Shown here: one piece after another, positions 8,820 through 53,694 of the stretch | Layout of the letters: each line of letters opens with the position of its first letter | Numbering within the stretch: the stretch's first letter is position 1 | Made by a program: the position numbers and the translations under genes | Notes under the pieces: generated by a model | Databases searched by the model: none | Told to the model about the DNA's origin: nothing | The model's input: only the letters and a program-made list of their open reading frames with translations | From: Motilimonas eburnea | GTDB taxonomy: Bacteria; Pseudomonadota; Gammaproteobacteria; Enterobacterales; CBDFNC01 | Reading direction: 5' to 3' | DNA length: 64,000 nt | Assembly (NCBI RefSeq): GCF_021295345.1 | Contig: NZ_JAIMJB010000006.1 | Coordinates: forward strand, 25,892 to 89,891

Positions 8820-10499
8820 TTATTGTTTGATCCAAGCATCTTTCCAAGCTGTGCCTTCCCCTGGTGCGTAAGCTGAGCCACTACACCATAGGCCAAATGG
8901 CCAACCTTTACACTGGTAGACACTGCCTAGATTGCTAACAACATCACCCGGACCATAGCTGTTACCTGCAACATAAGGCTCAACACCGGTTGGTGGCTCA
9001 GTAGGTGCTACTGTTGGCGCTACCGTAGGCGCTACTGTTGGTTCAACCGTTGGCTCTGCCGTAGGAACAGGCGTTGGTGCTACCGTTGGCTCTGGCGTAG
9101 GTTGTGGGGTTGGTTGTGGCGTAGGCTCGGTGCCACATGAAGCTGCGCCGATTGCTTTCCATACACCCCAAGGTCCTGACTCAGAAGGGTTATCACCTTG
9201 TGTCCACCATTGTGCTTGCCATAATTGACCCGCCCAAATAACTTGCTCTTTGCCTTGATAAACCGAATTCGCATTCCACTCATTTGAGCAATTGCCAGTA
9301 GGCGGAGGCGTCGGCTCAACTTGCTGTTTTGCCGTCGCAGTGACCGATGCCGTGTAAGCCGTGGTGTTTTTGTCGATACCAAAGTTTAACGCAACGCCTG
9401 CTGTACCTGGATTCGCCGCACCAAATTGAACCCCAACCGAACAAGTGGCATTTGGCTGTAAGGTTTTTGCACTACAGTAGTCAAAGGTAACCACTAAATC
9501 AGACGCAACGCCCGTCGCTTGGGTGTTCACTGAGTCTAGGGTAAATTCAACATTACCCGCATTAGTAAGCTTAAAGGTGTGCTGTTTAGTTTCACCAATA
9601 ATGAATGAGCTGAGTGTTTGTGCCTTGGTATATCCCACGCTAACAAGATCGGCAGGGCCATTATCAATAATGCCATCCACCCAAGAGCGCAACGCTGCGA
9701 TATCACTGTAAACACCATATTTGCCAGGGCGAGCACAGCCAATACCCCAGCTTACGATACCCAGTTGTACCACTTGGCCACCTTGGTTGATCACAATCGG
9801 GCCACCGCTGTCGCCTTGACAAGAATCTTTTCCGCCTTGTGAGTAACCCGCACAGAAAGCGACATCACCGATATTTTGGTAACTACCACCCGCTTGACGA
9901 CATACTGCATCAGACACCAGTGGTACATCCACTTCTTGTAATACAGTTGGTGATAAACCACCTTCTTGAGTACGTCCTAGACCGGCCACTGTCAGTAGGT
10001 CACCCTCACGAACATATTGGCTTAGGGTTCCCTCAGCGATTTGCACCGTGACCGCACCTGGTAATTGACGGTCTAGTTTTAGCAGCGCGATATCATTGGC
10101 TAGGGTTCTCGTATTGTATTGCGGGTGAATAAAAATTTGTTCTACATTGGCGCGTTGTCCATCAGCTGCGCCGTAGCGGTAACCACCCACCTTCACAGCC
10201 ACTTGGCTAGGGGAGTCACCTACCACACAGTGTGCCGCGGTCAATACGTAGCCGTTACCTAAGTAACTTGCACCACAGTAAGAACGATTACCACTGCGGC
10301 TAACAAGCTGAGTATAAAACTCCCAGTCAGCTTGATTGGCATTGCCCCCACCGACAATTCGCGGAGTAACGATCTGATCATCTTCCAATGCCATTGCTTG
10401 GCTAGGCAATAATACTGACGAGATCATCGCTGCTAAAGCAGCTTGCTTAAACATCCTTGTTGAACTCATTGCTATCTTCCTTGTTATTTGGATTGCCAA
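8820..10499 (-). CDS. secreted trypsin-like (S1) serine protease with two C-terminal chitin/carbohydrate-binding (CBM5/12-like) domains separated by a Pro/Thr-rich linker
   Basis: Signal peptide, then IVGG... with catalytic-triad motifs TAAHC and GDSGGP. The C-terminal region has two W/Y-rich ~45-aa modules (AGQLWQAQWWTQG...; YVAGNSYGPGDVV..YQCKGWPFGLWC) flanking PTPQPTPQPTPEPTVAPT... repeats. Confidence 0.85.
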   Translation of the reverse strand: MAIQITRKIAMSSTRMFKQAALAAMISSVLLPSQAMALEDDQIVTPRIVGGGNANQADWEFYTQLVSRSGNRSYCGASYLGNGYVLTAAHCVVGDSPSQVAVKVGGYRYGAADGQRANVEQIFIHPQYNTRTLANDIALLKLDRQLPGAVTVQIAEGTLSQYVREGDLLTVAGLGRTQEGGLSPTVLQEVDVPLVSDAVCRQAGGSYQNIGDVAFCAGYSQGGKDSCQGDSGGPIVINQGGQVVQLGIVSWGIGCARPGKYGVYSDIAALRSWVDGIIDNGPADLVSVGYTKAQTLSSFIIGETKQHTFKLTNAGNVEFTLDSVNTQATGVASDLVVTFDYCSAKTLQPNATCSVGVQFGAANPGTAGVALNFGIDKNTTAYTASVTATAKQQVEPTPPPTGNCSNEWNANSVYQGKEQVIWAGQLWQAQWWTQGDNPSESGPWGVWKAIGAASCGTEPTPQPTPQPTPEPTVAPTPVPTAEPTVEPTVAPTVAPTVAPTEPPTGVEPYVAGNSYGPGDVVSNLGSVYQCKGWPFGLWCSGSAYAPGEGTAWKDAWIKQ

Positions 10500-10732: not shown

Positions 10733-11743
10733 CTAGTTACTGCAACACTTGGTTAGCATACTGTAAACATCCGTTGCAATGGTTTGCTTGTCTCCGGCTT
10801 GGCGGGGAAAAATAAACTCTATTTGACTGCATGCCTGTTTATCAATCACCTCGATATGGATTTCGTTATCTATTTGATTCACTTTAATGGCGCCAATTTC
10901 GGTATTGAGTACACCTTTCACTCTCAAGGCATTGAATTGGGCCAACCCCTTCTCTAAACAGCTGCGTTCAAAACACACCGTCTCTGCAAACTGCCAACCT
11001 AGGCTAAAAAAATCATCTGTTGCGGCGGGCGCAGATAATGACAACGGGCCTTCTTTTATTAAGTGAGCCATCCCGCCAACCTGTGGTTCAAAACTGCGGA
11101 TCTGAGTTATCCCTTTGACTTGTTTCAAATTAGCCAAAGGCAGCCAAGCAAGGGGAAGCTGAGCGTGATGAAGAGGGCGAATGGCGGGTGAGTTTACTAA
11201 CTTGAGTTCAGATACTAATACTTCTAAATCAGCCACTTCTTGGTTTAGGTATAAGTCCGCTTTGCTGGCTAAGATAAGATCGGCAATCTCAATTTGCTGT
11301 CGAAAGATGTCATGTTCACGATAGCGCGGCTGACTTAATACTCTGGCATCAACTAAAGTGGTTACCCCCTGTACATCAAGGACTCCTTTGTACTCAGGCT
11401 GTTGTAAAGCAGCAAGGACTTGTTTTGGGTGCCCCAACCCAGTTGGCTCAATAAATAGGCGGTCGGGTTTCATTTTAGTGAGTAATTGATTGAGCGCAAC
11501 CACCATAGGTACACCCGCCGTACAACACATGCAACCACCGGGAACCTGCTGAATGTGAATACTTGTGGTATTACTTTGCTGCGTTTCCAGCAACGCCTTA
11601 TCCAAGCCTATTTCACCAAATTCGTTGACCAATACCGCCCAACGCTCAGTGGCAGGACACTGAGATAGCAAGTGCGCTATCGCACTGGTTTTCCCTGCCC
11701 CTAAAAAGCCACAGATCAAATGGGTTTTTACATTTTTAATCAT
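10733..11743 (-). CDS. COG0523-family (CobW/ZigA/YjiA-like) metal-chaperone GTPase
   Basis: P-loop GFLGAGKTS, CxCC motif GGCMCCTAG and a CobW C-terminal domain. 336 aa. Confidence 0.85.
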   Translation of the reverse strand: MIKNVKTHLICGFLGAGKTSAIAHLLSQCPATERWAVLVNEFGEIGLDKALLETQQSNTTSIHIQQVPGGCMCCTAGVPMVVALNQLLTKMKPDRLFIEPTGLGHPKQVLAALQQPEYKGVLDVQGVTTLVDARVLSQPRYREHDIFRQQIEIADLILASKADLYLNQEVADLEVLVSELKLVNSPAIRPLHHAQLPLAWLPLANLKQVKGITQIRSFEPQVGGMAHLIKEGPLSLSAPAATDDFFSLGWQFAETVCFERSCLEKGLAQFNALRVKGVLNTEIGAIKVNQIDNEIHIEVIDKQACSQIEFIFPRQAGDKQTIATDVYSMLTKCCSN

Positions 11744-11873
11744 GATTTTACGCTCTTGGATTTCAATGGGTTGATTTTACTAAAGAGAAAATCGGTATAT
11801 TTATTTGACTTCAAATCAAGGTGTTTAATAATAGCGCCTAGCCATTTCAATCGTTCAACGACAGGGACAGTTT

Positions 11874-12413
11874 ATGCTGCGAATAATACCCGCTGCTATC
11901 GCTTTGGCCATCATAGATGTGGCTTTATTAAGCGGTAGCTTCTACTTCCAAGGTGCCAGCTTAGCACAAGAGCTTACACTGCAATTTAATCAGACCATGG
12001 AGTCATCGCTGACGGCATTGGGACTGATTTTACAAAATACCTTGCTCGGTGGCGACGAAGTGATGGCTGAAACCATCATTAATGCCATGTTTGATGGCAG
12101 TATGTTGCAAAGTGTGACGCTCAAAGATCTGGACGGTTTAATTGCCTTTAACCGCATGTTTGGTGAGCCGACCGCCAATTATCCTCATTGGTTGGCACAA
12201 CTTTATCCCATTGGCGATCTCAGCCGAGATATGGAAATGACCGATGGCTGGAACATCTTAGGCGATTTATATGTGGCCAGTCACCCGCACCACTTTTATC
12301 AAGCGATGTGGAACGTACTCAGCGATCGCCTTGCGACCCAAGGGACAATAGCGCTCGGCGCTTGGCTATGCCAAGTGATCACTCTTATCTGGCTAGCAAC
12401 AAGGAAACGTTAA
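11874..12413 (+). CDS. LapD/MoxY N-terminal periplasmic domain protein; looks like a LapD truncated right after TM2 (no HAMP-GGDEF-EAL)
   Basis: 179 aa: TM1, a periplasmic domain, TM2, then stop. Closely parallels the LapD N-terminus (LSGSFYF...; ...YPHWLAQLYPIGDLSRDMEMTDGWNILGDLYVASHP...), with the GW of the LapG-binding hairpin conserved. Confidence 0.65.
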   Translation: MLRIIPAAIALAIIDVALLSGSFYFQGASLAQELTLQFNQTMESSLTALGLILQNTLLGGDEVMAETIINAMFDGSMLQSVTLKDLDGLIAFNRMFGEPTANYPHWLAQLYPIGDLSRDMEMTDGWNILGDLYVASHPHHFYQAMWNVLSDRLATQGTIALGAWLCQVITLIWLATRKR

Positions 12414-12415
12414 TC

Positions 12416-13378
12416 ATGCGTAAATCGTTATTTACCTCTTTATACTTTGCAGCTTGTGCGCTTTTAACTAGCCATGTATACGCAGAGCAGATCAAACCTA
12501 AACTGGTGACCATCGCATCAGGCTCGACACAAGGGATCTATTTTCAGGTGGCTTCTGAAATATGTCGCCTCACCAGTGCCAGCAAGGCAGAGCACGGTTA
12601 TCGCTGCGGCGCTATCCCCACCGAAGGTTCGGAAGAAAACTTAACGCTACTACTCGCCGGCGAAGTTGACTTTGCTATCGTCCAATCTGATACCTTGTAT
12701 TTTGCTGCTCAGCAGTACCCAAGCCAATTACAAGCCGTATTGGCAACCCATGCCGAGCCACTGACGATTGTGACGACGCCAGACGCAGAGATCCAGCGTG
12801 CAATGGACTTAAACGGTAAGATACTCAATATCGGCGGCCAAGGCTCCGGCACAAACACCTCATTAAAACGTTTATTAGCCGTCCCAAAATGGGATCAGCA
12901 GCCACAAGTCACCGAAGATAACAATTGGGAAGCCTTTGAAAACCTTTGCTTAGGTGAAATAGACGCGTATGCCGCGATTATCGGCCACCCTAATCGCTTG
13001 GTTAATCGCACCAGTAAACGTTGTGATATCCAGTTTGTGAGTGTGAATAGTCAGGCCTTAGCGGATAGTGAAGGTAACTTGCCTCCTTATCTTATGCCTG
13101 GGCATATTCCTGGCCGGTTGTATCGAGGCAATAAAGAGAAAACCCCAACCATCTCTTTTTCGGCTAACTTAGTCACTCGAAAAGATGTCGACCCTGCTTA
13201 TGTCAAAGCCGTGGCCAAGGCCATCTTTGGTCAAGAAAAGTCATTTGGCAAAAACATCACGGCTTATGCCAATGTATTTAGATCAATTGAAACCATGACA
13301 GGTGATGCGGTGGTGATCCCGCTGCACCCTCAAGTCGAGCAGCTCAAAGCAACAGCCCAAGCGGCTAAAGCAGACTAA
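12416..13378 (+). CDS. TAXI-family (TRAP-associated) periplasmic solute-binding protein, orphan
   Basis: Signal peptide, then ...VTIASGSTQGIYFQVASEICRL....EENLTLLLAGEVDFAIVQSDTLYFAA, typical of TAXI/Imp receptors. The start was chosen at MRKSLFTS rather than the ORF-track start at 12188. Confidence 0.7.
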   Translation: MRKSLFTSLYFAACALLTSHVYAEQIKPKLVTIASGSTQGIYFQVASEICRLTSASKAEHGYRCGAIPTEGSEENLTLLLAGEVDFAIVQSDTLYFAAQQYPSQLQAVLATHAEPLTIVTTPDAEIQRAMDLNGKILNIGGQGSGTNTSLKRLLAVPKWDQQPQVTEDNNWEAFENLCLGEIDAYAAIIGHPNRLVNRTSKRCDIQFVSVNSQALADSEGNLPPYLMPGHIPGRLYRGNKEKTPTISFSANLVTRKDVDPAYVKAVAKAIFGQEKSFGKNITAYANVFRSIETMTGDAVVIPLHPQVEQLKATAQAAKAD

Positions 13379-13410
13379 AAAATAAGGAGGCTTAGCCTCC
13401 TTATTTCATC
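13379..13410. terminator. bidirectional rho-independent terminator between the TAXI gene (+) and the BTLCP gene (-)
   Basis: AAGGAGGCT-TAGCCTCCTT hairpin with A/T runs on both sides. Confidence 0.6.
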
Positions 13411-13478
13411 TAACCACTCATCAAACCAGTTATCAAACCGCTCATAAAACCAAGGGATAGCAAACCTTTGAGAGGGGA

Positions 13479-14177
13479 TTATAAAACGGTACGAGGCGAT
13501 TTTAATTTTTGGCTAGAAAAGCGCGATTTAACACTTTTCCATTCAGAGAGTTTATCTGCGTTACCCACTGGCTCCCCTTTTTTGGCCTTGCCCATTACCC
13601 AAAGGTGCTTGGCATTAAAGCTATAGACAGGGATCAGATCTTTACGCCTTGAAGCGGGTTTAATATCGTACTCTAAGTTATCTAAAATTAATGGGTTGGC
13701 TCTACGGCTAGGGTAATAAGCCAGCACCATATGGAATTGATCATATTTAACGGCCTTAACATACACCAAGCGCAGTTGGTCTTCGCCAACACCTAACTCC
13801 ATTAAGCTGTAATATTTAGCAATAGAATAATCTTCACAGTCACCGCCTTTGGCTCCGACAAATTCTAGCGGCGATGCCCAGTAATCATTTTGCCCCCACA
13901 ACTTTTTATCTTGGGCATAAACCAGCATATTAAAGAAATTATTAATCTCGGTTAGCTTTTGTTTATCGGACATAGATTTAGCATCACGCAAGGTGTTCAC
14001 TAACGCATCTATGCGTTTAATGGCTTTGTCACCATAGGTATCCGCCATTCGTTGTCTAATCGACTGCTGGCTTAAAAACGCTTCTAAATCCGAGGCTTGC
14101 ACAAGGCAAGGGAGTATTAAGCTGACACAAAGGGTCGCTGTGAATAGTAAATTAGTGAGAGGTTTTAACATGGCCAT
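13479..14177 (-). CDS. periplasmic bacterial transglutaminase-like cysteine proteinase (BTLCP), LapG-like
   Basis: Signal peptide plus a ...GGDCEDYSIAKYYSL... Cys motif with downstream His/Asp. 232 aa, matching the LapG/DUF920 size. Confidence 0.8.
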   Translation of the reverse strand: MAMLKPLTNLLFTATLCVSLILPCLVQASDLEAFLSQQSIRQRMADTYGDKAIKRIDALVNTLRDAKSMSDKQKLTEINNFFNMLVYAQDKKLWGQNDYWASPLEFVGAKGGDCEDYSIAKYYSLMELGVGEDQLRLVYVKAVKYDQFHMVLAYYPSRRANPLILDNLEYDIKPASRRKDLIPVYSFNAKHLWVMGKAKKGEPVGNADKLSEWKSVKSRFSSQKLKSPRTVL

Positions 14178-14313
14178 CCTAGCTTAACGGTACGATTAAT
14201 GAGCATTCATCCTTGCTTTACCCCAGCAGCACAGCCTTAACTGCAATCAGCTCAGCACAAAAATCATAGCGTAGAAAGCGTCAACTTTGAATCAAATGTT
14301 TGACCAATGGCAT

Positions 14314-14338
14314 GAAAAAAGCGCCATTTGGCGCTTTC
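14314..14338 (-). terminator. rho-independent terminator downstream of deoD (minus strand)
   Basis: On the minus strand: AAGCGCC-AAA-TGGCGCTT followed by TTTTTTCAT. Confidence 0.6.
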
Positions 14339-14358
14339 AAATTAATCAGATAATAAGC

Positions 14359-15063
14359 TTAGATCAGTGAGTCTAAGGTCATCACTATCATATCGTTAAA
14401 GGTGGTTTGACGCTCATCTGACGTGGTTTGCTCACCGGTGCGGATATGATCCGATACCGTTACCACACACAGGGCATTGGCGCCGTATTCCGCTGCCACG
14501 CCATATAAGCCGGCGGCTTCCATTTCGACCCCTAAAACACCCATTTTTTCCATGTAATCAAACATCTCAGGATCTGGGGTATAGAACAAATCAGCAGAAA
14601 ATACGTTACCGACTTGGACTGGAATATTGGCTTGCTCAGCGGCGTTAACCACCTTGCGTAATAGGCCAAAATCAGCAATCGCGGCAAAGTCATGATCTTT
14701 AAAGCGCATGCGGTTAACTTTAGAGTCGGTACAAGCGCCCATGGCCACGATCACATCGCGCACCTTGATTTTTTCACTCACCGCACCACAACTGCCAACA
14801 CGAATCAGGTTTTTCACCCCGTATTCGGTGATCAGCTCTTTTGCATAAATTGAACAAGAAGGTATGCCCATGCCTGAGCCCATCACAGAAACGCGTTTAC
14901 CTTTGTAAGTCCCAGTAAAACCTAACATGTTGCGCACATCGGTCACTTGAACTGGGTTTTCTAGAAAGGTTTCGGCAATGTATTTGGCGCGCAGTGGATC
15001 GCCTGGAAATAATACCGTTTCGGCAAAGTCGCCTGCTTTTGCATTGATATGTGGAGTAGCCAA
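14359..15063 (-). CDS. deoD: purine nucleoside phosphorylase DeoD-type
   Basis: 234 aa, [34 protein letters not shown]..., a near-canonical DeoD. Confidence 0.92.
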
Positions 15064-30256: not shown

Positions 30257-30859
30257 ATGAGCATGTTTTATAGTCTTGCATTTGCCTTTCCAACTGCCCT
30301 TTTTACTGCTTTTGTACTGCTCATTTCTCTTTATTGGGCCGTGACTGTGATTGGTATGACGGAAATTGAGATGCTCGATGTTGATGACTCCTTGCTCGAT
30401 TTTTCCGGTTTAATGGCCAAGCTCAAACTCGATGGCGTGCCCGTCACCATTGCTTTGTCATTACTGTTTTATTTCTCTTGGGTTGTCAGCCTCATTATTC
30501 AAAATCAACTTAACCAAATGTTAGCGCCAGGGATCACCTACTATGGTTTTGGCCTGCTCGCGATGCTCGTCAGTTTATTACTCGGCGATCTCATCGCTAG
30601 CCAATGTGTTAAACCATTGCGCAAGATCTTTCGTGACCAAGAGGTACTCAGTAAACAAGACCTTGTCGGTAAAACGGCCATCGTCAGAACAACCAGCGTG
30701 ACCGATAGTTTTGGTGAAGCCAACTTTAATGATGGCGGCGCCGGAATCATTATAAAAATAAGAGCACATCAACCTAACCAACTTAATCGTGGCGACTCAG
30801 TGTTACTGGTGGAATATTTGCAAGAGCAAGATTCCTATATTGTCACCGCCCATTTGTAA
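30257..30859 (+). CDS. yqiJ: NfeD/YqiJ-like inner-membrane protein (membrane domain plus C-terminal OB-fold), partner of the flotillin
   Basis: 200 aa: multiple N-terminal TM helices then a soluble ~70-aa beta-rich C-terminus. Only 22 bp upstream of the SPFH gene, which is the YqiJ-YqiK arrangement. Confidence 0.65.
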   Translation: MSMFYSLAFAFPTALFTAFVLLISLYWAVTVIGMTEIEMLDVDDSLLDFSGLMAKLKLDGVPVTIALSLLFYFSWVVSLIIQNQLNQMLAPGITYYGFGLLAMLVSLLLGDLIASQCVKPLRKIFRDQEVLSKQDLVGKTAIVRTTSVTDSFGEANFNDGGAGIIIKIRAHQPNQLNRGDSVLLVEYLQEQDSYIVTAHL

Positions 30860-30880
30860 TCATCGTTTTAGGGAAAAACT

Positions 30881-33121
30881 ATGTTAGATATCACTACCAT
30901 ATTGATCATTGTCGGCATCGGCTTTGGCATCTTGTTGGGCTTTGCTTTATTGGTTAAAGCCTTTTATATCAAGGTACCTCAGGGCACGGCCTTGATCGTT
31001 AACACCACTCAAACCACACCTAAGGTTCGCTTCACGGGTGCCCTTGTTATCCCCGTGATCCACAAGATGGAAAAAATGCGTATATCCTTGATCACGCTAG
31101 AGATAGATCGCCGAGGTAAAGATGGCCTTATCTGTTTAGATAACATGCGCGCCGACATTACCGTTGCCTTCTATTTACGTGTAAACGAAACAGCTGAAGA
31201 CGTACTTAAAGTCGCCAAATCCATCGGTGCCGATCGCGCTTCCGATAAAGATGCAGTGAACGAGTTATTTAATGCCAAATTCTCTGAGGCATTAAAAACC
31301 GTGGGTAAAAAAATGGAGTTCTTACAACTGTTTGAAGAGCGAGCATTTTTCCGCGATGAGATTGTTAAAACCATAGGTAATGACTTAAACGGTTATGCCC
31401 TTGAAGACGTGGCGATCGATTACTTAGAGCAAACGCCAAAATCCGCTCTAGATCCTAACAACATCATGGACTCGGAAGGTATTCGTAAAATCACCGAAGT
31501 CACCTCCAAAGAGAACGTTAAAACCAACGAATACATTCGTGATGAAGAGCGTGCCATCAAAAAGAAAAACGTTGAAACCATTGAGCATTTACTCGTGCTT
31601 GATCGCCAAGAGAAAGAAGCACGAGCGAAACAAGAGCGTGAAGTGGCCAACATTAAAGCGCGCGAGAAGTCTGAACAGCTTAAGGTGGAAGAAGAAGAGC
31701 GCCTCAAGGCCGAATCAGCACGTATTCAAACCGAGCAAAATATTGCCATCCAAGAAGAAAACAAACTTCGTGAAATTGAAGTGTCGCAGCAAAACCGCGA
31801 ACGTGCGATTGGCGTTGAGCAAGAGCGGGTACAACGTGCCAAAGATCTTGAAGTGGTATCACGCGAACGTGAAGTCGCGCTGCAAACCATAGAGAAAGAG
31901 CGTGCCCTCGAAGTTGAGAAGAAAGAAATCGCCAACGTGGTACGTGAGCGTATCGCCGTTGAGAAAACCGTGGCTGAAGAAGAAGAGCGCATTAAAGAAG
32001 TACGTGAAGTCTCTGAAGCCGATCGTAACCGCCAAGTGGTGATCCTACAGGCCGAAGCACAAGCCCAAGAAGAGCTAGTTAAACAGGTTAAACAAGCCGA
32101 AGCCGATGAAATTAAAGCGCGCCACGAAGCGCAAAAAATCATCACTATGTCCCAAGCCGATCTCGAAGCTGCAGCGAAAAATGCCGACGCCATGAAGAAA
32201 ATGGCCGAAGGTATCGAAGCTGAAAACTCAGCACCGGGTCTGGCCGAAGCCCGCGTGAAAGAAGCCCTAGCCGATGCCCTAGAGAAAGAAGGCCTAGCCA
32301 AAGCTAAGGTAGAGCAAGAAACCTTAGTGGCTCGCGCCCAAGGTGATGAGCAAGTGGGTCTGGCTAAAGCGCGCGTACTCGAAGCGAACGCCAGCGCCAA
32401 AGAAAAAGATGGCCTTGCCGAAGCCAAAGTATTGGCTGAAAAACTCACAGCACAAGCTCAAGGTGATAAAGATATCGGTCTTACTGAGGCCATGGTATTG
32501 GCTGAGAAATTGAGCGCTCAAGCCAAAGGCGATAAAGACATTGGCTTGGCTAAAGCCTTGGCTTCTCGCGAGCTAGGTACTGCCGAAGCGGACGTGTTAG
32601 CGCTGAAACTGTCTGCCCAAGCTAAGGGTGATAAAGAGCAAGGCATGGCAGAAGCGGAAGTACTCAGTGCCAAATTCCACGCCGAAGCCCAAGGTCTGGT
32701 TGAGAAATTCAGCGCCATGGCAACCATGTCAAAAGAAGCTCGCGAGCACGAAGAGTTCCGTATGCAGCTTGAGAAAGACTTTGAGCAAGCCATGCAAGCC
32801 ATTAGCGTTAATAAGGACGTTGCTGTCCAGCAAGCGCAAGTGCTGTCTTCTGCCCTTGAAAAAGCCAACATCGACATCGTGGGAGGCCAAGGCGATTACT
32901 TCAACTCGTTAAGTAAAGCCCTGACCGTCGGTAAGTCCATCAATGGTCTGGTTGGTAAAACACCTTCGGTTGCGGCATTGCTGAATAAATTCATTGGCGG
33001 TGAAGAGTCAAAGCTATCGCCAGAGCAAACCGCAAAACAAAACTCATCTGATGTATTAGGTGGCTTATTAAACGAAAAAGCCAATGCAAACCAAGCAACT
33101 TCCGAGTCTAAAGACGCTTAA
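30881..33121 (+). CDS. yqiK: flotillin-like SPFH/band-7 protein (YqiK/FloT family), unusually long (746 aa) with an extended E/A/K-rich coiled-coil and imperfect ~21-aa repeats
   Basis: N-terminal TM, then SPFH core (...KVPQGTALIVNTTQ...ISLITLEIDRRGKDGLICLDNMRADITVAFYLRV...). Long EA-repeat region AQGD(K/E)(D/Q)(I/V)GL(A/T)(E/K)A(K/M)VLA(E)KLSAQ repeated about 5 times. Confidence 0.85.
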   Translation: MLDITTILIIVGIGFGILLGFALLVKAFYIKVPQGTALIVNTTQTTPKVRFTGALVIPVIHKMEKMRISLITLEIDRRGKDGLICLDNMRADITVAFYLRVNETAEDVLKVAKSIGADRASDKDAVNELFNAKFSEALKTVGKKMEFLQLFEERAFFRDEIVKTIGNDLNGYALEDVAIDYLEQTPKSALDPNNIMDSEGIRKITEVTSKENVKTNEYIRDEERAIKKKNVETIEHLLVLDRQEKEARAKQEREVANIKAREKSEQLKVEEEERLKAESARIQTEQNIAIQEENKLREIEVSQQNRERAIGVEQERVQRAKDLEVVSREREVALQTIEKERALEVEKKEIANVVRERIAVEKTVAEEEERIKEVREVSEADRNRQVVILQAEAQAQEELVKQVKQAEADEIKARHEAQKIITMSQADLEAAAKNADAMKKMAEGIEAENSAPGLAEARVKEALADALEKEGLAKAKVEQETLVARAQGDEQVGLAKARVLEANASAKEKDGLAEAKVLAEKLTAQAQGDKDIGLTEAMVLAEKLSAQAKGDKDIGLAKALASRELGTAEADVLALKLSAQAKGDKEQGMAEAEVLSAKFHAEAQGLVEKFSAMATMSKEAREHEEFRMQLEKDFEQAMQAISVNKDVAVQQAQVLSSALEKANIDIVGGQGDYFNSLSKALTVGKSINGLVGKTPSVAALLNKFIGGEESKLSPEQTAKQNSSDVLGGLLNEKANANQATSESKDA

Positions 33122-33139
33122 TGTTGCCATTGTTTATCT

Positions 33140-33205
33140 GCCGACTTGAGCCTTCAAGTCGGCACTAAAGTAAAGGCGCTAAAGTAAAAAGCACTAAAGT
33201 AAAGG
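33140..33205 (+). promoter_or_regulatory. 10-bp-stem hairpin (GCCGACTTGA-GCCT-TCAAGTCGGC, no U-tract) immediately followed by three tandem 14-15-bp direct repeats (GCACTAAAGTAAAGG / CGCTAAAGTAAAAA / GCACTAAAGTAAAGG) ending 4 bp before the giant ORF start codon
   Basis: Seen directly in the sequence. Sits in the 88-bp gap between the floT stop and the 1673-aa ORF start. Function (attenuator, processing site, operator or translational element) is inferred. Confidence 0.4.
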
Positions 33206-33209
33206 ATGC

Positions 33210-36200
33210 ATGATGTCGGATCACACTGTTGCAGAGAATGAACAAGATCTTGCCGCCGTTGCCGAAGGCGGCGCCTACCAAGTTATTCGCGCTCGCCTTA
33301 ACCAGCAAGGCAACGAGCTAGAGCAAAAAACCCAAAAACTCAATCAAGCCAGACTGAAAGAGTTTGGCCGCGAAGACATGCACGTACTTGGCCGAGTTCG
33401 CGTGCGCACTGAAAACAACTGCCAAGCCCGCGACATCGTCTGCGCGGGAGATTATTTACTGTTTGGCTACAATGTTTTTATCGGTCTCAAACAAGAAATT
33501 AAAATATCCGACGTCTTTGGTCTCTATAAGCTCAACCACACCGACGCCGGCTATGAAATGCACCATGAGCCGATCGCTGGAAGCTTTTTAGACAACCCCA
33601 GATTTGACCAAGACTTCACCGAGCTTTACACCTATTACAAAGAAGCTCGCCTACTTAGACTCACCATTCGCGATGGTAAGCTGCTGGCCAGTTTTCAGAT
33701 TGGCCTAAAAATGTCGGATGTCAGGGTGTTTCGCTGGAGCATCAGTAGCGATGGTAAAACCCTAGAATACATAGACAACCGCGGCGAGCGCGACCTCGTG
33801 CCGCCGGCCCAATACGATTTTGAATGGCAAGAATGTAGCCGTGAAAACGAAGTGGCGGGACGTTTCCCCCACATGAATATTTTAGACACCTTGTTTGTAG
33901 AAACCACCCAAGGTGATCTGACCGTCAAGATAGAAAACAATACCGACTCAGGCCTAGGCATCTACGCCGAAGACGTTGAAGACGACAACCAATCCCTTGA
34001 TGATGCGCGCTTTTTATATGCCGAAGTGGGCTCGCTGATCCTATTAAAGATACTGCCTTATCGCGAAGAAAAGTGGCGCTACTTGGTCTTTAACCGCAAC
34101 ACTGAAACCGTGGTGCGCATTGACCATATTGGCCACGCCTGTCGCCAGTTGCCTGAAAATCACGGCATCATCTTCCCCGGCGGTTATTACCTGCAAAATG
34201 GCGATTACAAAACCTTTGATGATGATATTACCGGCCTTGAATATCGCCAAACCATCAAGAGCCCTAATGGCGAAGACGTGTTGTATGTGTTTTATGAGCC
34301 AATCGAAGGCAAAGTCGGCCTTTATGCCTATAACCTGATCAACAAAAGCTTAGAAAACCCCTTGTTTGGTCACGGCTACGCCGCCCTAAATGATGGCCGC
34401 GTGGTGCTGTTTTATGCCGAAGGTGAGCCGACTCGCGTACACCCCATGCAAATTTGGCAAACGCCATTTTGCTCCGACGAGTACGCCAGCGCCCAGCCAA
34501 CTAAACAGAGCTTTTACGGCAAAATCGGCAACGCCGAACTCGTACGCGGCATCTCGGAATTATTTAGCACAGTTAAAGCCATCAACAACCAAACCGTTTC
34601 CACTAAGCTCTACAGCGAGTTGATTAAAAACGTCAACCGCATGTTTGATAGCTATCATTGGATGGCGGCACAACAAGTCGATGGTATCGAAAGCCTGCTG
34701 CGTCAAATTGCGGCCACGGCAGAGCTCGTGCTTGATGAGTTTGAAAAAGTTGAAACCATTCGCCAGCAAGCGCGCCAAGCCTTGCAACAAGCGCAGCAGC
34801 AACAAAGCAAGATATTATCTGAGATCACCCCTGATTCGTGGCAGACACCGGAAAAGTTTGTTGGCGGCCTTGATGCCATACGCAAACAAAAAGGCCACTT
34901 GCTGACCATCAAAACCATGCGTTACATGGAAGCCGAGCCATTAGCGCAAATGGGGCAAAAGCTGGAGCAAGCCGAGGCTAGCCTGAGCCAAAAAACCGTG
35001 GAGTTTTTGGCCAAAGAATCTTCATTAGCGCCCTATAACGATAAGCTAGCCAGCTTAAATACCGAGCTTGAAAAAGTGGTGTCGGTGGCCGAACTAGAGC
35101 CCGTTGCCGAGCAGCTTGAGCAAATGGCGGCCGGACTGGATTTACTGTCCGAGCTGATGGCAACCTTAAAGGTCAATGATGCCACGGTACGCACCCGCAT
35201 CATCGATACCATTTCGGAGATTTATGGCCGCTTAAACCAAACCAAGGCCAATGCGAAACATAAAAAGCAAAGCCTTGGCAGCGCCGAATCCCTAGCGCAG
35301 TTTTCTGCGCAATTTAAGCTGTTCAGCCAAAGTATTACCAATGCCTTGGGTCTGGCCAATACACCCGAAAAAGCCGATGAACAACTATCGCGCCTGTTGG
35401 TGCAGCTTGAAGAGTTAGAGAGTCAATTTAGCGAGCAGGAAGAATTTCTCACGGATATTCTGACCAAACGTGAAGAAGTCATAGAAAGCTTTGAAAGCCA
35501 TCGCCAACGTATGGTCGAAGCGCGCCAACGCAAGGCTAGCACGTTAAAAGACGCGGCCGAGCGGATCTTAGCCAGCATTGCCCGCCGGGTGCAAAAGTTC
35601 ACAGAACTAGAGCAGCTCAATACCTTTTTCGCTTCCGATGCCCTCGCCCTTAAAATTTACGATCTAGTGGCGCAGCTGCGCGAGATTGACGATTCGGTCA
35701 AAGCCGATGACATCGAAGCCAAATTTAAAAACAGCAAAGACCAAGCCATTCGCTCGCTGCGTGATAAAAGCGAAATCTTTGAAGACGGCGGCAACGTTAT
35801 CAAACTGGGGCCACGCCATAAGTTTACCGTGAACACCCAAGAGCTGGATCTCACCTTACTGCCTAAAGGTGATGAGCTAGTGTTCCACTTAACCGGTACC
35901 GACTACTTTGATGTTGCCAGTGACGCCGAGCTAAATCGTCTGCAAGATTACTGGACCCAAGAAATTGAATCAGAAACCAAGCAGGTTTATCGCGCCGAGT
36001 ACTTGGTTAAACAAATACTGGATAGCGCCGAACGAAATGAAGCAGGTTTAAGCACAGAGCAGCTAAGATTAGCACAAACGGATCCAGCCCAATTAAACCA
36101 ATTGGTCCGCGATTTTGCCGCGCCGCGCTACAAAGAAGGCTACGAACGCGGTATTCATGATCACGATGCCAGCTTGATTTTAAGTCAGCTGTTACCGGCT

Positions 36201-38231
36201 CTAAGTCAAGCCGATGTGCTCAGGTTTCCGCCATTAAGCCGTGGATTTAGCGCCATTTTTTGGGCTAACTGCCAACAAGATACGCCGATGCAAACTTGGC
36301 CAGAGCGGGCCAAATCGGCATTGCGTATGGAAGCCATCTTTAACTCAAGTGACGCGAAGCATTTACTTGAGCAAGAAATTAAACAAGCGCAGCAAGCCTT
36401 TGCCAAAGCCAATGAACTGCCCTTGGATAACACCGCCATTGATCTTAGCGCCCGCTATTTAGTGCAAGAGCTAGCCAAGGAGCCAGTGGTATTTGCCACC
36501 AGTAAATACGCCGACCATCTGGCGCAAGAGCTCAGACGCGCCATGGACACAGAGTCTTGGAATTCCTACCAGCATAGTTTAGAAAAACTCAAAGGTAAGA
36601 TAGGTCAGCGCTGGGCCCTAACTCAAGCTTGGCTGCAAGCCTTAGTCAGTAATAAAGCCATGGCAAAATGGCAAGCCTACATTCCAGAAGCCGTGGCCTT
36701 GATTAACGGTGAAGGCCGCCTTAGCCGCCGCGTCCATGAAGTCGAGCTAGAGTTTCAGGTAGAGGGCTTAATGGGCCAGCATAGCCGGATAAAAGATCGT
36801 AAGCTTGATCTTTCTTTAGATGACTTTTTGCAGCGCCTTGAACATCACCAACAAGCCGTATTACCCGGCTACAACGAGTTCTTAAGTGTTCGTAATCAGG
36901 TCACTCAAAAGCAAAAAACACAGCTGCGCTTAAGCGAGTTTAAGCCTAGGCCGCTGTCGTCTTTTGTACGAAATAAGTTAATCAATGATGCGTATTTGCC
37001 CATCATAGGTGATAACTTGGCCAAACAAATGGGTACAGTGGGCGAAAGTAAGCGAACCGATTTGATGGGCTTGCTCATGCTTATCTCCCCACCGGGCTAT
37101 GGTAAAACCACCTTGATGGAATACATCGCCAGCCGGTTGGGCTTGATTTTTATGAAAATCAACTGTCCCTCTATCGGTCATGTGGTGGACTCGCTCGATC
37201 CCGCGCAGGCGCCCAACGCCACCGCCAAAGCCGAGTTAATTAAACTCAACCTAGGCTTAGAAATGGGTAACAACGTGATGCTGTATCTCGATGATATTCA
37301 GCACACTAACCCTGAATTTTTACAAAAATTCATTTCTTTGTGTGATGGCACGAGGCGCATCGAAGGTATCTGGCAAGGCCAGCCAAAAACCTATGATCTG
37401 CGCGGTAAAAAGTTCTGCGTGATCATGGCGGGTAACCCTTACACCGAATCCGGTGAAGCATTTCAAATCCCCGACATGCTGGCCAACCGCGCCGACATAT
37501 ACAACCTAGGTGATATTTTAGGTGGCATGGATGAGGCCTTTGCCTTGAGTTACCTTGAAAATGGCATGACCTCCAACCCCGTACTGGCGCCACTGGCGAC
37601 GCGTTCACAGCAAGATTTCTATAAGCTGGTTGAGCTGGCCAAAGGCAATCAAGTGGATAGCAGCGAATTAGAGCACGGCTACAGCGGCGCCGAGCTGAAT
37701 GAAATCACTGGCGTGTTGGCCAAGTTACTGCAAATTCAACAAGTGGTACTGGCCGTCAACCAAAGCTATATTGCCTCGGCGGCCCAAGCCGATAAGTATC
37801 GCACCGAGCCGCCCTTTAAGCTGCAAGGCAGTTATCGCAACATGAACAAGATGGCCGAAAAAGTCTCTTCGGTCATGAATGATGACGAGCTGATGCAACT
37901 CATTGAAGATCATTACCTAGGTGAAGCGCAAATGTTGGCCGCGAGCGCCGAGGAAAACTTACTCAAATTGGCCGAGCTGCGCGGTAACATGACACCAGAG
38001 CAAGCTCAGCGCTGGCAACAAATCAAAGATGATTATGTTAAGCATCAGACATTGGGTGGCGACAGTGATGTTACCCTCAAGGCCGTGTCGCAATTGTTAG
38101 ATATGAATGCCAACCTGAACAGTATTAACGATACCTTAAGCCAAACCCGTTATCGCTTTAAACGTTCCACCACAGAAACGGGTAAAACTCAGGTCAGCAT
38201 CAGCAAAAAGCCAAAGCATGTGAAGGAATAA
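33210..38231 (+). CDS. giant (1673-aa) multidomain cytoplasmic protein: N-terminal ~430-aa beta-rich domain, ~800 aa of Q/E/L/A-rich coiled-coil/helical repeats, C-terminal MoxR/AAA_5-like P-loop ATPase module plus a ~300-aa helical tail
   Basis: Continuous ORF. Walker A LISPPGYGKTTLMEY at aa ~1290-1300 (nt ~37086-37112). Walker B-like VMLYLDDIQH (DD rather than DE) at aa ~1356-1363. Sensor-1-like CVIMAGNP. No TM or signal peptide. Family not recognised. Confidence 0.8.
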   Translation: MMSDHTVAENEQDLAAVAEGGAYQVIRARLNQQGNELEQKTQKLNQARLKEFGREDMHVLGRVRVRTENNCQARDIVCAGDYLLFGYNVFIGLKQEIKISDVFGLYKLNHTDAGYEMHHEPIAGSFLDNPRFDQDFTELYTYYKEARLLRLTIRDGKLLASFQIGLKMSDVRVFRWSISSDGKTLEYIDNRGERDLVPPAQYDFEWQECSRENEVAGRFPHMNILDTLFVETTQGDLTVKIENNTDSGLGIYAEDVEDDNQSLDDARFLYAEVGSLILLKILPYREEKWRYLVFNRNTETVVRIDHIGHACRQLPENHGIIFPGGYYLQNGDYKTFDDDITGLEYRQTIKSPNGEDVLYVFYEPIEGKVGLYAYNLINKSLENPLFGHGYAALNDGRVVLFYAEGEPTRVHPMQIWQTPFCSDEYASAQPTKQSFYGKIGNAELVRGISELFSTVKAINNQTVSTKLYSELIKNVNRMFDSYHWMAAQQVDGIESLLRQIAATAELVLDEFEKVETIRQQARQALQQAQQQQSKILSEITPDSWQTPEKFVGGLDAIRKQKGHLLTIKTMRYMEAEPLAQMGQKLEQAEASLSQKTVEFLAKESSLAPYNDKLASLNTELEKVVSVAELEPVAEQLEQMAAGLDLLSELMATLKVNDATVRTRIIDTISEIYGRLNQTKANAKHKKQSLGSAESLAQFSAQFKLFSQSITNALGLANTPEKADEQLSRLLVQLEELESQFSEQEEFLTDILTKREEVIESFESHRQRMVEARQRKASTLKDAAERILASIARRVQKFTELEQLNTFFASDALALKIYDLVAQLREIDDSVKADDIEAKFKNSKDQAIRSLRDKSEIFEDGGNVIKLGPRHKFTVNTQELDLTLLPKGDELVFHLTGTDYFDVASDAELNRLQDYWTQEIESETKQVYRAEYLVKQILDSAERNEAGLSTEQLRLAQTDPAQLNQLVRDFAAPRYKEGYERGIHDHDASLILSQLLPALSQADVLRFPPLSRGFSAIFWANCQQDTPMQTWPERAKSALRMEAIFNSSDAKHLLEQEIKQAQQAFAKANELPLDNTAIDLSARYLVQELAKEPVVFATSKYADHLAQELRRAMDTESWNSYQHSLEKLKGKIGQRWALTQAWLQALVSNKAMAKWQAYIPEAVALINGEGRLSRRVHEVELEFQVEGLMGQHSRIKDRKLDLSLDDFLQRLEHHQQAVLPGYNEFLSVRNQVTQKQKTQLRLSEFKPRPLSSFVRNKLINDAYLPIIGDNLAKQMGTVGESKRTDLMGLLMLISPPGYGKTTLMEYIASRLGLIFMKINCPSIGHVVDSLDPAQAPNATAKAELIKLNLGLEMGNNVMLYLDDIQHTNPEFLQKFISLCDGTRRIEGIWQGQPKTYDLRGKKFCVIMAGNPYTESGEAFQIPDMLANRADIYNLGDILGGMDEAFALSYLENGMTSNPVLAPLATRSQQDFYKLVELAKGNQVDSSELEHGYSGAELNEITGVLAKLLQIQQVVLAVNQSYIASAAQADKYRTEPPFKLQGSYRNMNKMAEKVSSVMNDDELMQLIEDHYLGEAQMLAASAEENLLKLAELRGNMTPEQAQRWQQIKDDYVKHQTLGGDSDVTLKAVSQLLDMNANLNSINDTLSQTRYRFKRSTTETGKTQVSISKKPKHVKE

Positions 38232-38234
38232 ATC

Positions 38235-38921
38235 ATGGACCAACAACATATAGAGCAAGTATTGCTGGCTAGTCTTGAAGACAACAAGCTCGATCGGGAT
38301 GAAAAACATGCCCTTGCCGAGTTAACTCAAAGCTTGCAAACCCAACCCGATAACATCAGCTTTATTCGCAATAAAGCCTTTGCTTTGCTATTGGCCAGCC
38401 ATGACTTTAATGAGGAGCAGTTTCGTGCCATTAAATGGCTGGAAAACGTGGTCAAAACCTTAGATAAAAACAGCCAGCAACCTAGCATCGTCGCCGATGC
38501 GTGCTTTAGCCCGGGCACAGATTGTTTAAATCGGATCGAGAGTTTGTGCCAACAAGCTAGGCGCAGTATCGATATCTGTGTGTTTACGATTTCGTGTAAC
38601 GAAATCACCGATGCGATATTGCAAGCCCACCAGCGCGGCATCACGGTGCGCATTATTTCTGATAATGATAAGCGTAATGACAAGGGCTCTGACGTCTATC
38701 GCTTAAGCGACGCAGGCATTCCTGTGGTGGTGGATAAGACCGACCATCATATGCACCACAAGTTTGCCCTGTTTGACCAAAAAGTGTTGCTCAACGGCAG
38801 CTTTAACTGGACCCGTAGCGCGTCTAAATACAATCAAGAGAACATCGCGACCACCGACAATCCTAAATTGGTTGCCGCCTTTAGCCGAGAGTTTGACCGC
38901 CTTTGGCATAAATTAGGTTAG
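38235..38921 (+). CDS. Nuc-like phospholipase-D-family nuclease (single HKD motif) with a ~90-aa N-terminal helical extension
   Basis: HxK(x4)D(x6)GSxN motif HHKFALFDQKVLLNGSFNWTRSA at nt ~38752-38820. Start is 4 bp after the giant ORF stop, with an AGGA RBS overlapping that stop (translational coupling). Confidence 0.8.
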   Translation: MDQQHIEQVLLASLEDNKLDRDEKHALAELTQSLQTQPDNISFIRNKAFALLLASHDFNEEQFRAIKWLENVVKTLDKNSQQPSIVADACFSPGTDCLNRIESLCQQARRSIDICVFTISCNEITDAILQAHQRGITVRIISDNDKRNDKGSDVYRLSDAGIPVVVDKTDHHMHHKFALFDQKVLLNGSFNWTRSASKYNQENIATTDNPKLVAAFSREFDRLWHKLG

Positions 38922-39111
38922 TTCCCGTCTAGGCCAGTTGCTCTGCACTGGCCTAATCAAACCTGCCCCACAAACATAAACAATAATTAAGTATGCCCTG
39001 TCGCGATAAGTTGCTATGTTAACCCGCTTACTCAAGCGTACATTCAGTTGGACTTCACTGAGTTCAAACTTTAATCGTTAGCCACTTTACTTTTAGCGCA
39101 CGCATTGCAGA

Positions 39112-53500: not shown

Positions 53501-53694
53501 TGCTCACGGTGATCATTGGCCTGATCCCGATTATGTACGGCACAGGAACCGGCTCGGAAGTGATGCAACGCATCGCCGCGCCGATGATTGGCGGTATGGC
53601 CTCGGCATTAATGCTGACCTTATTGGTTTTACCCGCCATTTTCCAGCTTTGGAAAAGCAGAGAAATACAGCTAAACCCACTGACAGATAAATAA
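50554..53694 (+). CDS. cusA: heavy-metal efflux RND transporter (CusA/CzcA family; CusA-like by context)
   Basis: 1046 aa, 12-TM RND architecture with a conserved HME N-terminus (MIPSIIRWSIHNRFLVL...). Confidence 0.85.
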   Translation: MIPSIIRWSIHNRFLVLVATVFLVLGGLYSVKNTPVDALPDLSDVQVIIKTSYPGQAPQVVEDQVTYPLTTAMLAVPGAETVRGYSFFGDSYVYIIFNDDTDMYWARSRVLEYLSQVAPKLPASAKPTLGPDATGVGWIFSYVLQDKTGQHDLAELRSLQDWFLKYELQTVDGVSEIATVGGMVKQYQVQIDPAKLRAYNLTLQQVNMAIQNGNQESGASVIEVAEAEHMVRTTGYLSSIKDIQSLPLKVTDKGTPLLLGDIADISLGPQMRRGISELNGEGEAVGGVVVMRFGENASEVIAKVKTKLSELQLGLPEGVEIVTTYDRSTLINAAVDNLWTKLAEEFIVVAIVCALFLFHIRSSLVIALSLPVGILSAFIIMHWQGINANIMSLGGIAIAIGAMVDGAIVMIENVHKHIERTPLTDKNRWQVISKAAEEVGAPLFFSLLIITLSFLPVFALEGQEGKMFSPLAFTKTYAMAAAAGLAITLVPVLMGYFIRGKILPEHKNPVNKGLVGMYRPLLKLSLRFPKSMILLALILMGSAYYPMSKLGGEFIPPLDEGDLMYMPTTFPGVSIGKARELLQQTNKLIKTLPEVETVWGKVGRAESATDPAPLTMIETVIQLKPKDQWREGMTSEKLRKELDQLIQFPGLTNAWVMPIKTRIDMLATGIKTPIGIKVAGPDLKQIERIGAALEPILNQLDGTASVYAERVAGGRYVTIDIKRHHAARYGLNINEVQQVISTAVGGMNVSETVEGLQRYPINVRYPQDYRDSVVKLQNLPLVTPNGARIALADVADIRYEDGPPMIKTENARPNGWVFVDIEGRDLGSYVAEAKQAVAEQLDLPAGYSLAWSGQYEYMERAKARLSIVTPITLAIIMLLLYLSFRRVGEVLIIMATLPLAMVGGLWLMHYLGYNFSIAVGVGFIALAGVAVEIGVIMLVYLNQAWHYKKLDAKEREQALNAADLASAIEQGAGLRVRPVMMTVLTVIIGLIPIMYGTGTGSEVMQRIAAPMIGGMASALMLTLLVLPAIFQLWKSREIQLNPLTDK

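Follow-up and report, generated by a model that had tools for sequence, protein, structure and literature searches.

A stand-alone LapD output domain encoded with a TAXI solute-binding protein and a LapG paralogue in Motilimonas eburnea

A 64-kb stretch of DNA of the marine bacterium Motilimonas eburnea (the window, whose coordinates are used throughout) codes for LapD-N, an inner-membrane protein predicted to consist solely of the output domain of the biofilm switch LapD between two transmembrane (TM) helices, with the Trp and Asp residues that dock the protease LapG retained. Its gene, lapD-N, is followed by a gene for a TAXI-family periplasmic solute-binding protein (SBP) and then, in convergent orientation, by lapG2, which codes for a LapG paralogue. 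Lap is the textbook case of inside-out signalling, cytoplasmic cyclic di-GMP (c-di-GMP) controlling a periplasmic protease. We tentatively favour the hypothesis that the three genes make up a functional accessory Lap module, in which LapD-N would be a c-di-GMP-blind, membrane-anchored dock for LapG whose hold is set by the TAXI protein. The open reading frames (ORFs) of the window were listed and compared with Pfam, NCBIfam and PDB, and the locus has the following features.

11805-11832, forward strand: sigma-70-like promoter upstream of lapD-N, TTGACT, 16-nucleotide (nt) spacer, AATAAT (10 of 12 consensus positions; a consensus match only)
11874-12413, forward strand: lapD-N, 179-residue stand-alone LapD output domain, TM1/periplasmic PAS-like domain/TM2 (PF16448, PDB 4u64, AlphaFold2 (AF2) model with Foldseek, orthologues)
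11883-11945, forward strand: TM1, about residues 4-24, hydrophobic stretch IIPAAIALAIIDVALLSGSFY, at the start of helix H4-58 of the AF2 model; boundaries approximate
12093-12095, forward strand: codon of D74 within NAMFDG, equivalent of Pseudomonas fluorescens LapD D72, a hot spot of LapG binding (alignment to 3pjv)
12243-12251, forward strand: D124-G125-W126, tip of the hairpin, equivalent of LapD W125 and CdgS9 W126 (alignments)
12333-12398, forward strand: TM2, about residues 154-175, with nothing but RKR between it and the stop codon (helix H138-177 of the AF2 model)
12416-13378, forward strand: gene of the orphan TAXI-family periplasmic SBP, 320 residues, Sec signal peptide ...VYA/EQ (TIGR02122, PF16868, PDB)
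13379-13478, no strand: convergent intergenic spacer of 100 bp between the TAXI gene and lapG2
13479-14177, reverse strand: lapG2, LapG-paralogue periplasmic Ca-dependent cysteine protease (BTLCP), 232 residues (230 in the NCBI annotation), signal peptide ...VQA/SD

Residues 31-146 of the lapD-N product match the Pfam family LapD_MoxY_N (PF16448; 1e-24, 87 bits against a cut-off of 25), and phmmer retrieves from PDB the solved LapD output domains 4u64 (1.5e-10) and 3pjv (7e-6). An NCBI entry of M. eburnea is 100% identical to this product. The AF2 model of LapD-N (pLDDT 82.5) is a TM helical hairpin bearing a PAS-like domain, and Foldseek gives 4u64 as its top PDB match (TM-score 0.71, root-mean-square deviation 2.8 Å). 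These results bear out the order TM1, LapD/MoxY periplasmic domain, TM2 given in an earlier model reading of the sequence (the original prediction), with the correction that the similarity to LapD, called strong there, is only moderate (23-29% identity). W126 and D74 align to W125 and D72 of LapD and are invariant across the subfamily alignment. The hairpin reads MTDGWNILG and the model places W126 between strands E117-123 and E128-136. The GW expected to capture LapG is thus present, but within GWNI and not the canonical GWxQ, whose Gln is not kept.

LapD-N ends with ...WLATRKR, about 3 residues past TM2, at the point where its longer relatives begin their HAMP domain (RLLKPL; motif LLxPL), in agreement with the prediction that the ORF stops where HAMP-GGDEF-EAL should start. 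Neither a HAMP domain nor GGDEF-EAL was found in LapD-N from the end of the ORF, the subfamily alignment and the coverage of the NCBIfam LapD model NF045673, of which the product covers only positions 9-168 out of 647 (39 bits against a cut-off of 1020). Having no cytoplasmic domain, LapD-N is therefore unable itself to sense c-di-GMP; with the LapG-docking determinants kept, the c-di-GMP-blind part of the original prediction stands. By tests of membership LapD-N is not a LapD, since it has neither HAMP nor GGDEF-EAL, scores far below the equivalog cut-off and lies in another operon context, while keeping the functional residues of the output domain. Its two TM helices anchor it in the membrane, where it is probably a dimer.

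The second gene codes for a protein with high scores for the TAXI family (TIGR02122, 176 bits against a cut-off of 84; PF16868, 8e-41) and for TAXI proteins of PDB (9oz4, 5.5e-41; 8s4j, 2.4e-39). The stop codon TAA of lapD-N occupies 12411-12413 and the TAXI ATG begins 2 nt later at 12416, with AGGAA upstream, an arrangement that predicts translational coupling of the two genes. Their stop and start overlap or abut in all Motilimonas genomes examined. The protein shares with the TAXI-TRAP binding proteins (PDB 9oz4, 8s4j, 1us4) its sequence family, the signal peptide and a conserved Cys pair near the N-terminus, but its gene is linked to a LapD-like gene instead of one for a TRAP membrane subunit: no TRAP permease gene (fused DctQM type) turned up, either in the scan of the window's ORFs or in gene tables for 13 related loci. 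The module TAXI proteins are therefore transporter-less. A lipoprotein nature was considered and rejected, as there is no conserved lipobox, and so was a role as LapG substrate, inspection by eye revealing no TAAG-like di-alanine site near the N-terminus. A word-index search for homologues returned only Motilimonas and two Aeromonadaceae-like proteins and was uninformative on the ligand.

LapG2 belongs to the Pfam family Peptidase_C93 (PF06035; 1e-14, 55 bits against a cut-off of 27) and aligns to P. fluorescens LapG (4u65_E, 2e-47) over GDCEDY, FHMV, ILDN and PVYSFN, which confirms the LapG-like BTLCP predicted convergently 100 bp beyond the TAXI gene. GDCEDY, FHMV and ILDN, the motifs of the Cys-His-Asp triad, align also with Legionella pneumophila LapG (4fgo_A). 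The acidic residues of D-C-E-D that flank the catalytic Cys are reported to bind Ca (Boyd et al. 2012). No terminator-like hairpin is reported in the 100-bp spacer. A search with LapG2 uncovered a second Motilimonas LapG, LapG1 (238 residues, 47% identity). In a neighbour-joining tree LapG2 of Motilimonas groups with LapGs from an Aeromonadaceae module described below (bootstrap 79/100), while LapG1 falls within the canonical gammaproteobacterial clade (94/100). The NCBIfam LapG model (NF045674) gives LapG2 207 bits, below the equivalog cut-off of 320. LapG2 is thus a LapG-family protease but a separate paralogue, not a LapG equivalog.

An exhaustive HMMER search of 1.8 billion representative proteins shows that the closest relatives of LapD-N outside Motilimonas are 426-442 residues long (38-45% identity), typical LapDs of about 650 residues being only 25-33% identical. 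For all four of these relatives the LapD-like gene is followed by a TAXI gene whose start overlaps it and then by a convergent LapG gene, each time in an unrelated neighbourhood. One genome per GTDB species was also scanned with subfamily motifs, giving 80 loci that were characterized by ORF calling and phmmer; the patterns used, [IV]NAMFDG[SG] and E[MI]TDGWNI, bias this sample. In the 34 type A loci (Photobacterium, Oceanimonas, Alginatibacterium, Desulfobacterales and Deferribacterales), lapG precedes lapD on the same strand, the LapD product has 635-684 residues and includes GGDEF-EAL, and TAXI is always absent. Type B loci (about 42 from Aeromonas, Pseudaeromonas and Aeromonadaceae, and 3 from Motilimonas) have a LapD-like gene, TAXI and convergent LapG wherever the locus is complete; in the exceptions L018, L023, L027 and L054 the contig ends, an ORF is split or the ORF caller missed the LapD-like gene. 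The LapD-like proteins of the Aeromonadaceae loci are called here LapD2.

The association of TAXI with the LapD-N/LapD2 subfamily is absolute within the surveyed loci complete enough to tell, from about 40 species. The TAXI gene, held to be unrelated in the original prediction, is stop/start-coupled to the LapD-like gene in all of the more than 40 Motilimonas and Aeromonadaceae loci that extend far enough. Genes flanking the three differ between lineages; in M. pumila the flanks are wholly unlike those of other Motilimonas species, yet the trio stays together. Since the linkage is kept while the flanking genes change, TAXI belongs to the unit. The module TAXIs form a weak clade, separate from two transporter TAXIs of solved structure and from an additional TAXI of Aeromonas cavernicola. 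The gene of the latter (L005:9009-9920 / L018:5925-6836), a divergent sequence that groups with transporter TAXIs, lies upstream of lapD2 in divergent orientation. In M. pumila (L004:11684-13147 / L016) TAXI and lapG2 are separated by two inserted genes, one for a class-A-like beta-lactamase and one for a TM2-domain protein.

The Aeromonadaceae modules (loci L005-L013 and L017-L058) are separate from the canonical Lap system of Aeromonas, MbpA/MbpD/MbpG, whose MbpD is the product of a 1926-nt gene (bioRxiv 10.1101/2022.07.25.501442). They resemble the Motilimonas locus in gene order, stop/start coupling with TAXI, convergent lapG2 and a periplasmic domain 38-45% identical to that of LapD-N, including the hairpin E(M/L/I)TDGW(N/R)(I/M)LG, but LapD2 continues into a HAMP/S-helix and an EAL-like domain that all Motilimonas LapD-N proteins lack. 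The 64 residues past TM2 of LapD2 (P0008-P0011) align to the HAMP/S-helix of canonical LapD (hhalign 90%, E 1.4e-6), the only part matched in that comparison. The remaining C-terminal residues, about 190, have no Pfam match and, in a profile search, no PDB sequence match beyond noise (weak BlrP1 EAL, E 1.8). The AF2 model (pLDDT 74; 80-89 in the domain) folds them into an α/β barrel for which Foldseek finds EAL domains, including the LapD EAL 3pjt/3pju (E about 4e-6, TM-score about 0.5), and no GGDEF was found in LapD2. The model thus suggests a degenerate EAL-like fold. The sequences outline a reduction series from canonical LapD (HAMP/GGDEF/EAL) to LapD2 (HAMP and degenerate EAL-like domain, with TAXI) and LapD-N (nothing past TM2, with TAXI). 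LapD-N would descend from a longer protein, and Motilimonas has the most reduced version of a module shared with Aeromonadaceae.

Damaged versions also occur. A metagenome-assembled genome (MAG) of Psychromonadaceae (L083:6191-7939) has a lapG2-like gene followed on the same strand by a 337-residue LapD2-like ORF in which an internal deletion takes out the GW hairpin and TM2; there is no TAXI and this is probably a non-functional decay route. In Aeromonas molluscorum 848 (L054:1613-2944) lapD2 is split into ORFs of 115 and 321 residues by a frameshift or an assembly error. Further stand-alone LapD-N families were sought among the 1.8 billion proteins; several matches of 160-210 residues came up and were rejected by eye as probable contig-end or frameshifted fragments, since they have unusual tails (basic or Cys-rich) or stop within HAMP; none of them is near the Motilimonas clade. 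We found no relevant paper linking LapD/LapG with TAXI or another SBP and no description of the LapD2-TAXI-LapG2 module, the Aeromonas papers found discussing the canonical system only. The module seems undescribed in Aeromonas.

The short form of LapD-N is old. Orthologues of 179-181 residues, from 88% down to 55% identical, occur in at least six lineages: Motilimonas sp. KMU-193, M. cestriensis and relatives, M. pumila and three metagenomic lineages. Pairwise Nei-Gojobori ratios of nonsynonymous to synonymous substitution rates (dN/dS) are 0.086-0.119 for lapD-N, 0.06 for the TAXI gene and 0.05-0.06 for lapG2, with synonymous sites saturated (dS >1) in these comparisons. Constant length and a dN/dS of about 0.1 at saturated dS mean that lapD-N is not a recent pseudogene. 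The promoter-like element TTGAC...TAATAAT is kept in three of four species (M. eburnea, KMU-193, M. cestriensis) and not alignable in M. pumila, and a ribosome-binding site AGGGA/AGGA is likewise kept in three of four. The junction with TAXI is clean, without leftover coding remnant, and its 2 nt leave no room for a remnant of the cytoplasmic domain. The decayed lap locus considered in the original prediction is contradicted by this conservation of length, selection, promoter-like element and ribosome-binding site. Relatives do carry a longer gene, as a decay scenario supposed, in the form of the ORF of about 430 residues outside the genus, but the deletion is not recent: the truncation is ancient and the rest of the gene is under purifying selection. 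An Rfam scan of 11400-14600 for a riboswitch or other RNA element gave only a chance small RNA match (18.8 bits against a gathering threshold of 382) and no c-di-GMP riboswitch.

A canonical lap locus exists elsewhere in Motilimonas. The adhesin and second full-length LapD that the original prediction proposed to look for were both found in M. cestriensis and KMU-193, where a LapA-like adhesin of 5244 residues (LapA, VWA and RTX domains), an ABC transporter, a membrane fusion protein (MFP) and an outer membrane protein are encoded with lapG1 and lapD1. LapD1 is 645-647 residues long with GGDEF-EAL. The M. eburnea orthologue of LapG1 is WP_233070861.1, and TXSScan reports several type 1 secretion systems (T1SSs) in Motilimonas genomes (PMC13182010). 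The window itself has no adhesin or T1SS among its ORFs, as predicted: its OEP/MFP genes belong to a Cus-type resistance-nodulation-division (RND) pump, and its 1673-residue ORF is a DUF3686 ATPase. The window locus was never a canonical lap locus and is a paralogous accessory module. The two lapD1 genes, which set the scope of the LapD1 observations below, are the following.

L094:10727-12670, M. cestriensis Spo1_1: lapD1, adjoining lapG1, T1SS and LapA-like adhesin genes
L100:8726-10663, Motilimonas sp. KMU-193: lapD1, adjoining lapG1, T1SS and LapA-like adhesin genes

The periplasmic domain of LapD1 scores only 19 bits with Pfam LapD_MoxY_N, below the cut-off of 25. NAMFDG is replaced by NEQLLQ or AEQ--Q and the hairpin by PVSDSAIGE or LPQQEQAAY, so the equivalents of D72 and W125 are both gone. 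GW is kept in every other LapD-like protein of the sample except the internally deleted one of L083, and a Thalassotalea-like canonical LapD next to a 238-residue LapG1-like protease keeps it too. Comparison of M. cestriensis with KMU-193 gives the following amino acid identities and dN values.

LapD1 TM1: 71% identity, dN 0.16
LapD1 periplasmic domain: 25% identity, dN 0.87
LapD1 HAMP: 55% identity, dN 0.35
LapD1 GGDEF: 61% identity, dN 0.32
LapD1 EAL: 67% identity, dN 0.25
LapD-N: 77% identity, dN 0.19

LapG1 and LapG2 both keep PVYSFN and YY, whose equivalents in P. fluorescens LapG, V205, Y206 and Y176, cross-link to LapD (PMC4359373). The stand-alone LapD-N appears, from these alignments, to be the only protein in the genus with the canonical LapG-docking surface, suggesting an apparent transfer of docking function from the canonical receptor to LapD-N in Motilimonas.

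How such a module could work is suggested by studies of canonical LapD. The contact is anchored chiefly by W125, which fits into a hydrophobic LapG pocket, and the substitutions W125E and D72K abolish LapG binding (PMC4359373). Isolated output domains bind LapG readily; they were described as deregulated, since without the regulatory domains that would lock them in the off state they populate a high-affinity state spontaneously (PMC4359373). By analogy with these isolated domains, LapD-N, free of HAMP/GGDEF-EAL autoinhibition, would be intrinsically able to bind LapG and could tether LapG2, possibly also LapG1, to the membrane, out of reach of the N-terminal retention module of the LapA-like adhesin. 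Since LapD-N is blind to c-di-GMP, any regulator must act in the periplasm or the membrane, and the co-encoded TAXI is the obvious candidate. The co-translated, transporter-less TAXI would, as its genetic coupling suggests, be the periplasmic source of regulation: with or without its ligand bound, it may change the LapD-N dimer or compete with LapG for LapD-N. Adhesin release would then answer to an external solute, instead of or besides c-di-GMP. A more ambitious version sees a rewired Lap switch in which LapD1 has given up its docking surface, docking has moved to LapD-N, the grip on LapG2 (possibly LapG1) is set by TAXI, and the Aeromonadaceae module is the c-di-GMP-capable precursor. If true, this version would be the first natural case in which a solute exerts outside-in control over LapG-mediated adhesin release with no signal crossing the membrane. 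We regard it as doubtful.

Several points weigh against the hypothesis of a TAXI-controlled dock. For LapG, the output domain on its own is a poor competitor of activated full-length LapD (PMC4359373), so a free-standing LapD-N could be a weak dock, and the glutamine of GWxQ is absent from it. The module TAXIs are 35-38% identical to each other and 31-35% to transporter TAXIs, hence barely closer. Two unrelated genes separate TAXI from lapG2 in M. pumila, and the clearly degraded version without TAXI in the Psychromonadaceae MAG means that the module can decay. The canonical locus of M. eburnea is known from the LapG1 orthologue alone, its closest relative KMU-193 standing in. The role of TAXI is drawn from gene linkage alone, LapD-N expression and the LapD-N/LapG and TAXI/LapD-N contacts are inferred, and all functional claims on the module are inferential.

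A rival still to be reckoned with is a constitutive decoy or buffer, in which LapD-N titrates LapG2 and/or LapG1 at a fixed level and sets a cleavage threshold while TAXI is an ordinary uptake SBP sharing the operon. In its favour are the absence of a cytoplasmic input domain from LapD-N, the c-di-GMP-independent LapG binding of isolated output domains (PMC4359373) and the sequence of TAXI, which is that of a typical TAXI SBP. We consider this unlikely: the linkage to TAXI with overlapping stop and start persists in two families and over 40 species with all flanking genes changing, none of the loci has a TRAP permease nearby, and a pure titrator needs no partner under a dN/dS of 0.06.

The module could also be a proteolytic unit unrelated to the RTX adhesin, with LapD-N only a membrane tether and a different substrate, possibly linked to TAXI. 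It adjoins an adhesin or T1SS in no genome examined, LapG2 is of a distinct clade and its 207 bits fall short of the 320 set for a LapG equivalog, and Aeromonas already has a complete MbpA/D/G system. This is, however, quite unlikely given that LapG2 keeps all catalytic, Ca-binding and LapD-interface motifs, that no other candidate substrate is apparent in the locus and that TAXI itself has, by eye, no obvious TAAG-like di-alanine site near its N-terminus.

The divergence of LapD1 raises the alternative of a split LapD, where LapD1 gave up docking and works with LapD-N, for instance by forming a heteromer via the TM and periplasmic helices, so that c-di-GMP still controls LapG capture. LapD1 lacks the equivalents of W125 and D72 and the evolution of its output domain is about 4.7 times faster than that of LapD-N (dN 0.87 against 0.19), with TM1 (71% identity) and HAMP, GGDEF and EAL (55-67%) staying conserved, LapG1 keeping the interface motifs PVYSFN and YY, and the related canonical LapD of L097 keeping GW. 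Against it, heteromerisation is a supposition, lapD-N is encoded with TAXI and lapG2 and not with lapD1, LapD1 is known in two Motilimonas lineages only, and a different interface may simply have arisen between LapD1 and LapG1. Moreover, the Aeromonas module coexists with the canonical MbpD, whose loss gives the phenotype expected of a LapD null (bioRxiv 10.1101/2022.07.25.501442); since the parent module coexists with a working MbpD, the module was not born as a partner of LapD1. We hold a split LapD to be very unlikely.

That the 179-residue ORF is a decaying pseudogene fragment left after loss of the cytoplasmic half of a LapD-like gene is scarcely credible: the gene of about 430 residues at the same position outside the genus and the damaged versions in L083 and A. 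molluscorum (L054) speak for it, but every Motilimonas lineage keeps the length and the reading frame, the TAXI junction is clean, the docking residues are invariant, and dN/dS of about 0.1 with saturated dS largely refutes it.

The accessory module that we favour resembles the known LapD/LapG systems (Lap of P. fluorescens, CdgS9 of L. pneumophila, BpfD/BpfG of Shewanella, MbpD/MbpG of Aeromonas) in the output-domain fold between two TM helices, in the Trp-hairpin and Asp docking determinants with a LapG-family Ca-dependent cysteine protease as partner, and in the existence of a LapA-like adhesin and T1SS in the genus. It differs by the lack of HAMP, GGDEF and EAL in LapD-N, hence of c-di-GMP input, by the order lapD-N/TAXI/convergent lapG instead of lapG then lapD, by the absence of linkage to adhesin or T1SS, by a LapG2 of a separate paralogue clade and by GWNI in place of GWxQ. 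The closest counterpart of LapD-N is the recombinant isolated LapD output domain (PDB 3pjv, 4u64, 4u65), which is essentially the same polypeptide segment. The natural LapD-N differs from it in keeping both TM helices and being co-encoded with TAXI. SBP and membrane-receptor pairs are known, LuxP-LuxQ and TorT-TorS among them. NspS of Vibrio cholerae acts on the periplasmic domain of MbaA (PMC8079147, PMC8967002), and, like the TAXI protein here, it is an SBP encoded beside a membrane receptor of a biofilm circuit and proposed to pass a ligand signal to its periplasmic domain. NspS is PotD-like and not a TAXI, and the interaction is only proposed here. The output of all three pairs is cytoplasmic (c-di-GMP turnover or a kinase), whereas here it would be periplasmic, without transmembrane signalling.

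Other parts of the window deserve mention. Two genes upstream of lapD-N, a position conserved in M. cestriensis, 8820-10499 (reverse strand) codes for a VesB-like secreted trypsin protease with an Ig-like domain, CBM5/12 and a PT-repeat linker. A defence-like island at 30257-41955 (forward strand), with raised GC (0.49) and strong AT skew, comprises two ORFs without Pfam matches (200 and 746 residues), the 1673-residue DUF3686/DUF7902/AAA ATPase, which is the largest ORF of the window and has no PADLOC match, a PLD-family nuclease (DrmC-like, 2e-9) and a 947-residue helicase with a restriction endonuclease domain (MkoC 9e-47, MkoA 2e-33). The 988-residue GGDEF-EAL protein encoded at 43839-46805 (forward strand) has an N-terminal region of 545 residues without Pfam match and could be a c-di-GMP enzyme with a sensor of no recognized family. 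The Cus-type RND metal efflux operon at 47424-53694 (forward strand) codes for an OEP, a CusB with C-terminal CusF fusion and HMBD, and CusA; its GC of 0.50-0.51 is above the window average.

If the accessory-module hypothesis is true, LapG sequestration could be under direct control of the periplasm. LapD-N is a natural, selected output-domain-only LapD and would offer a minimal natural system for LapD-LapG docking. The docking residues lost from LapD1 and kept in LapD-N within the same genus provide a test of receptor modularity. The LapD2-TAXI-LapG2 module is present in nearly every species sampled of Aeromonas, a genus with fish and human pathogens, where it could be a second layer of adhesin or biofilm control.

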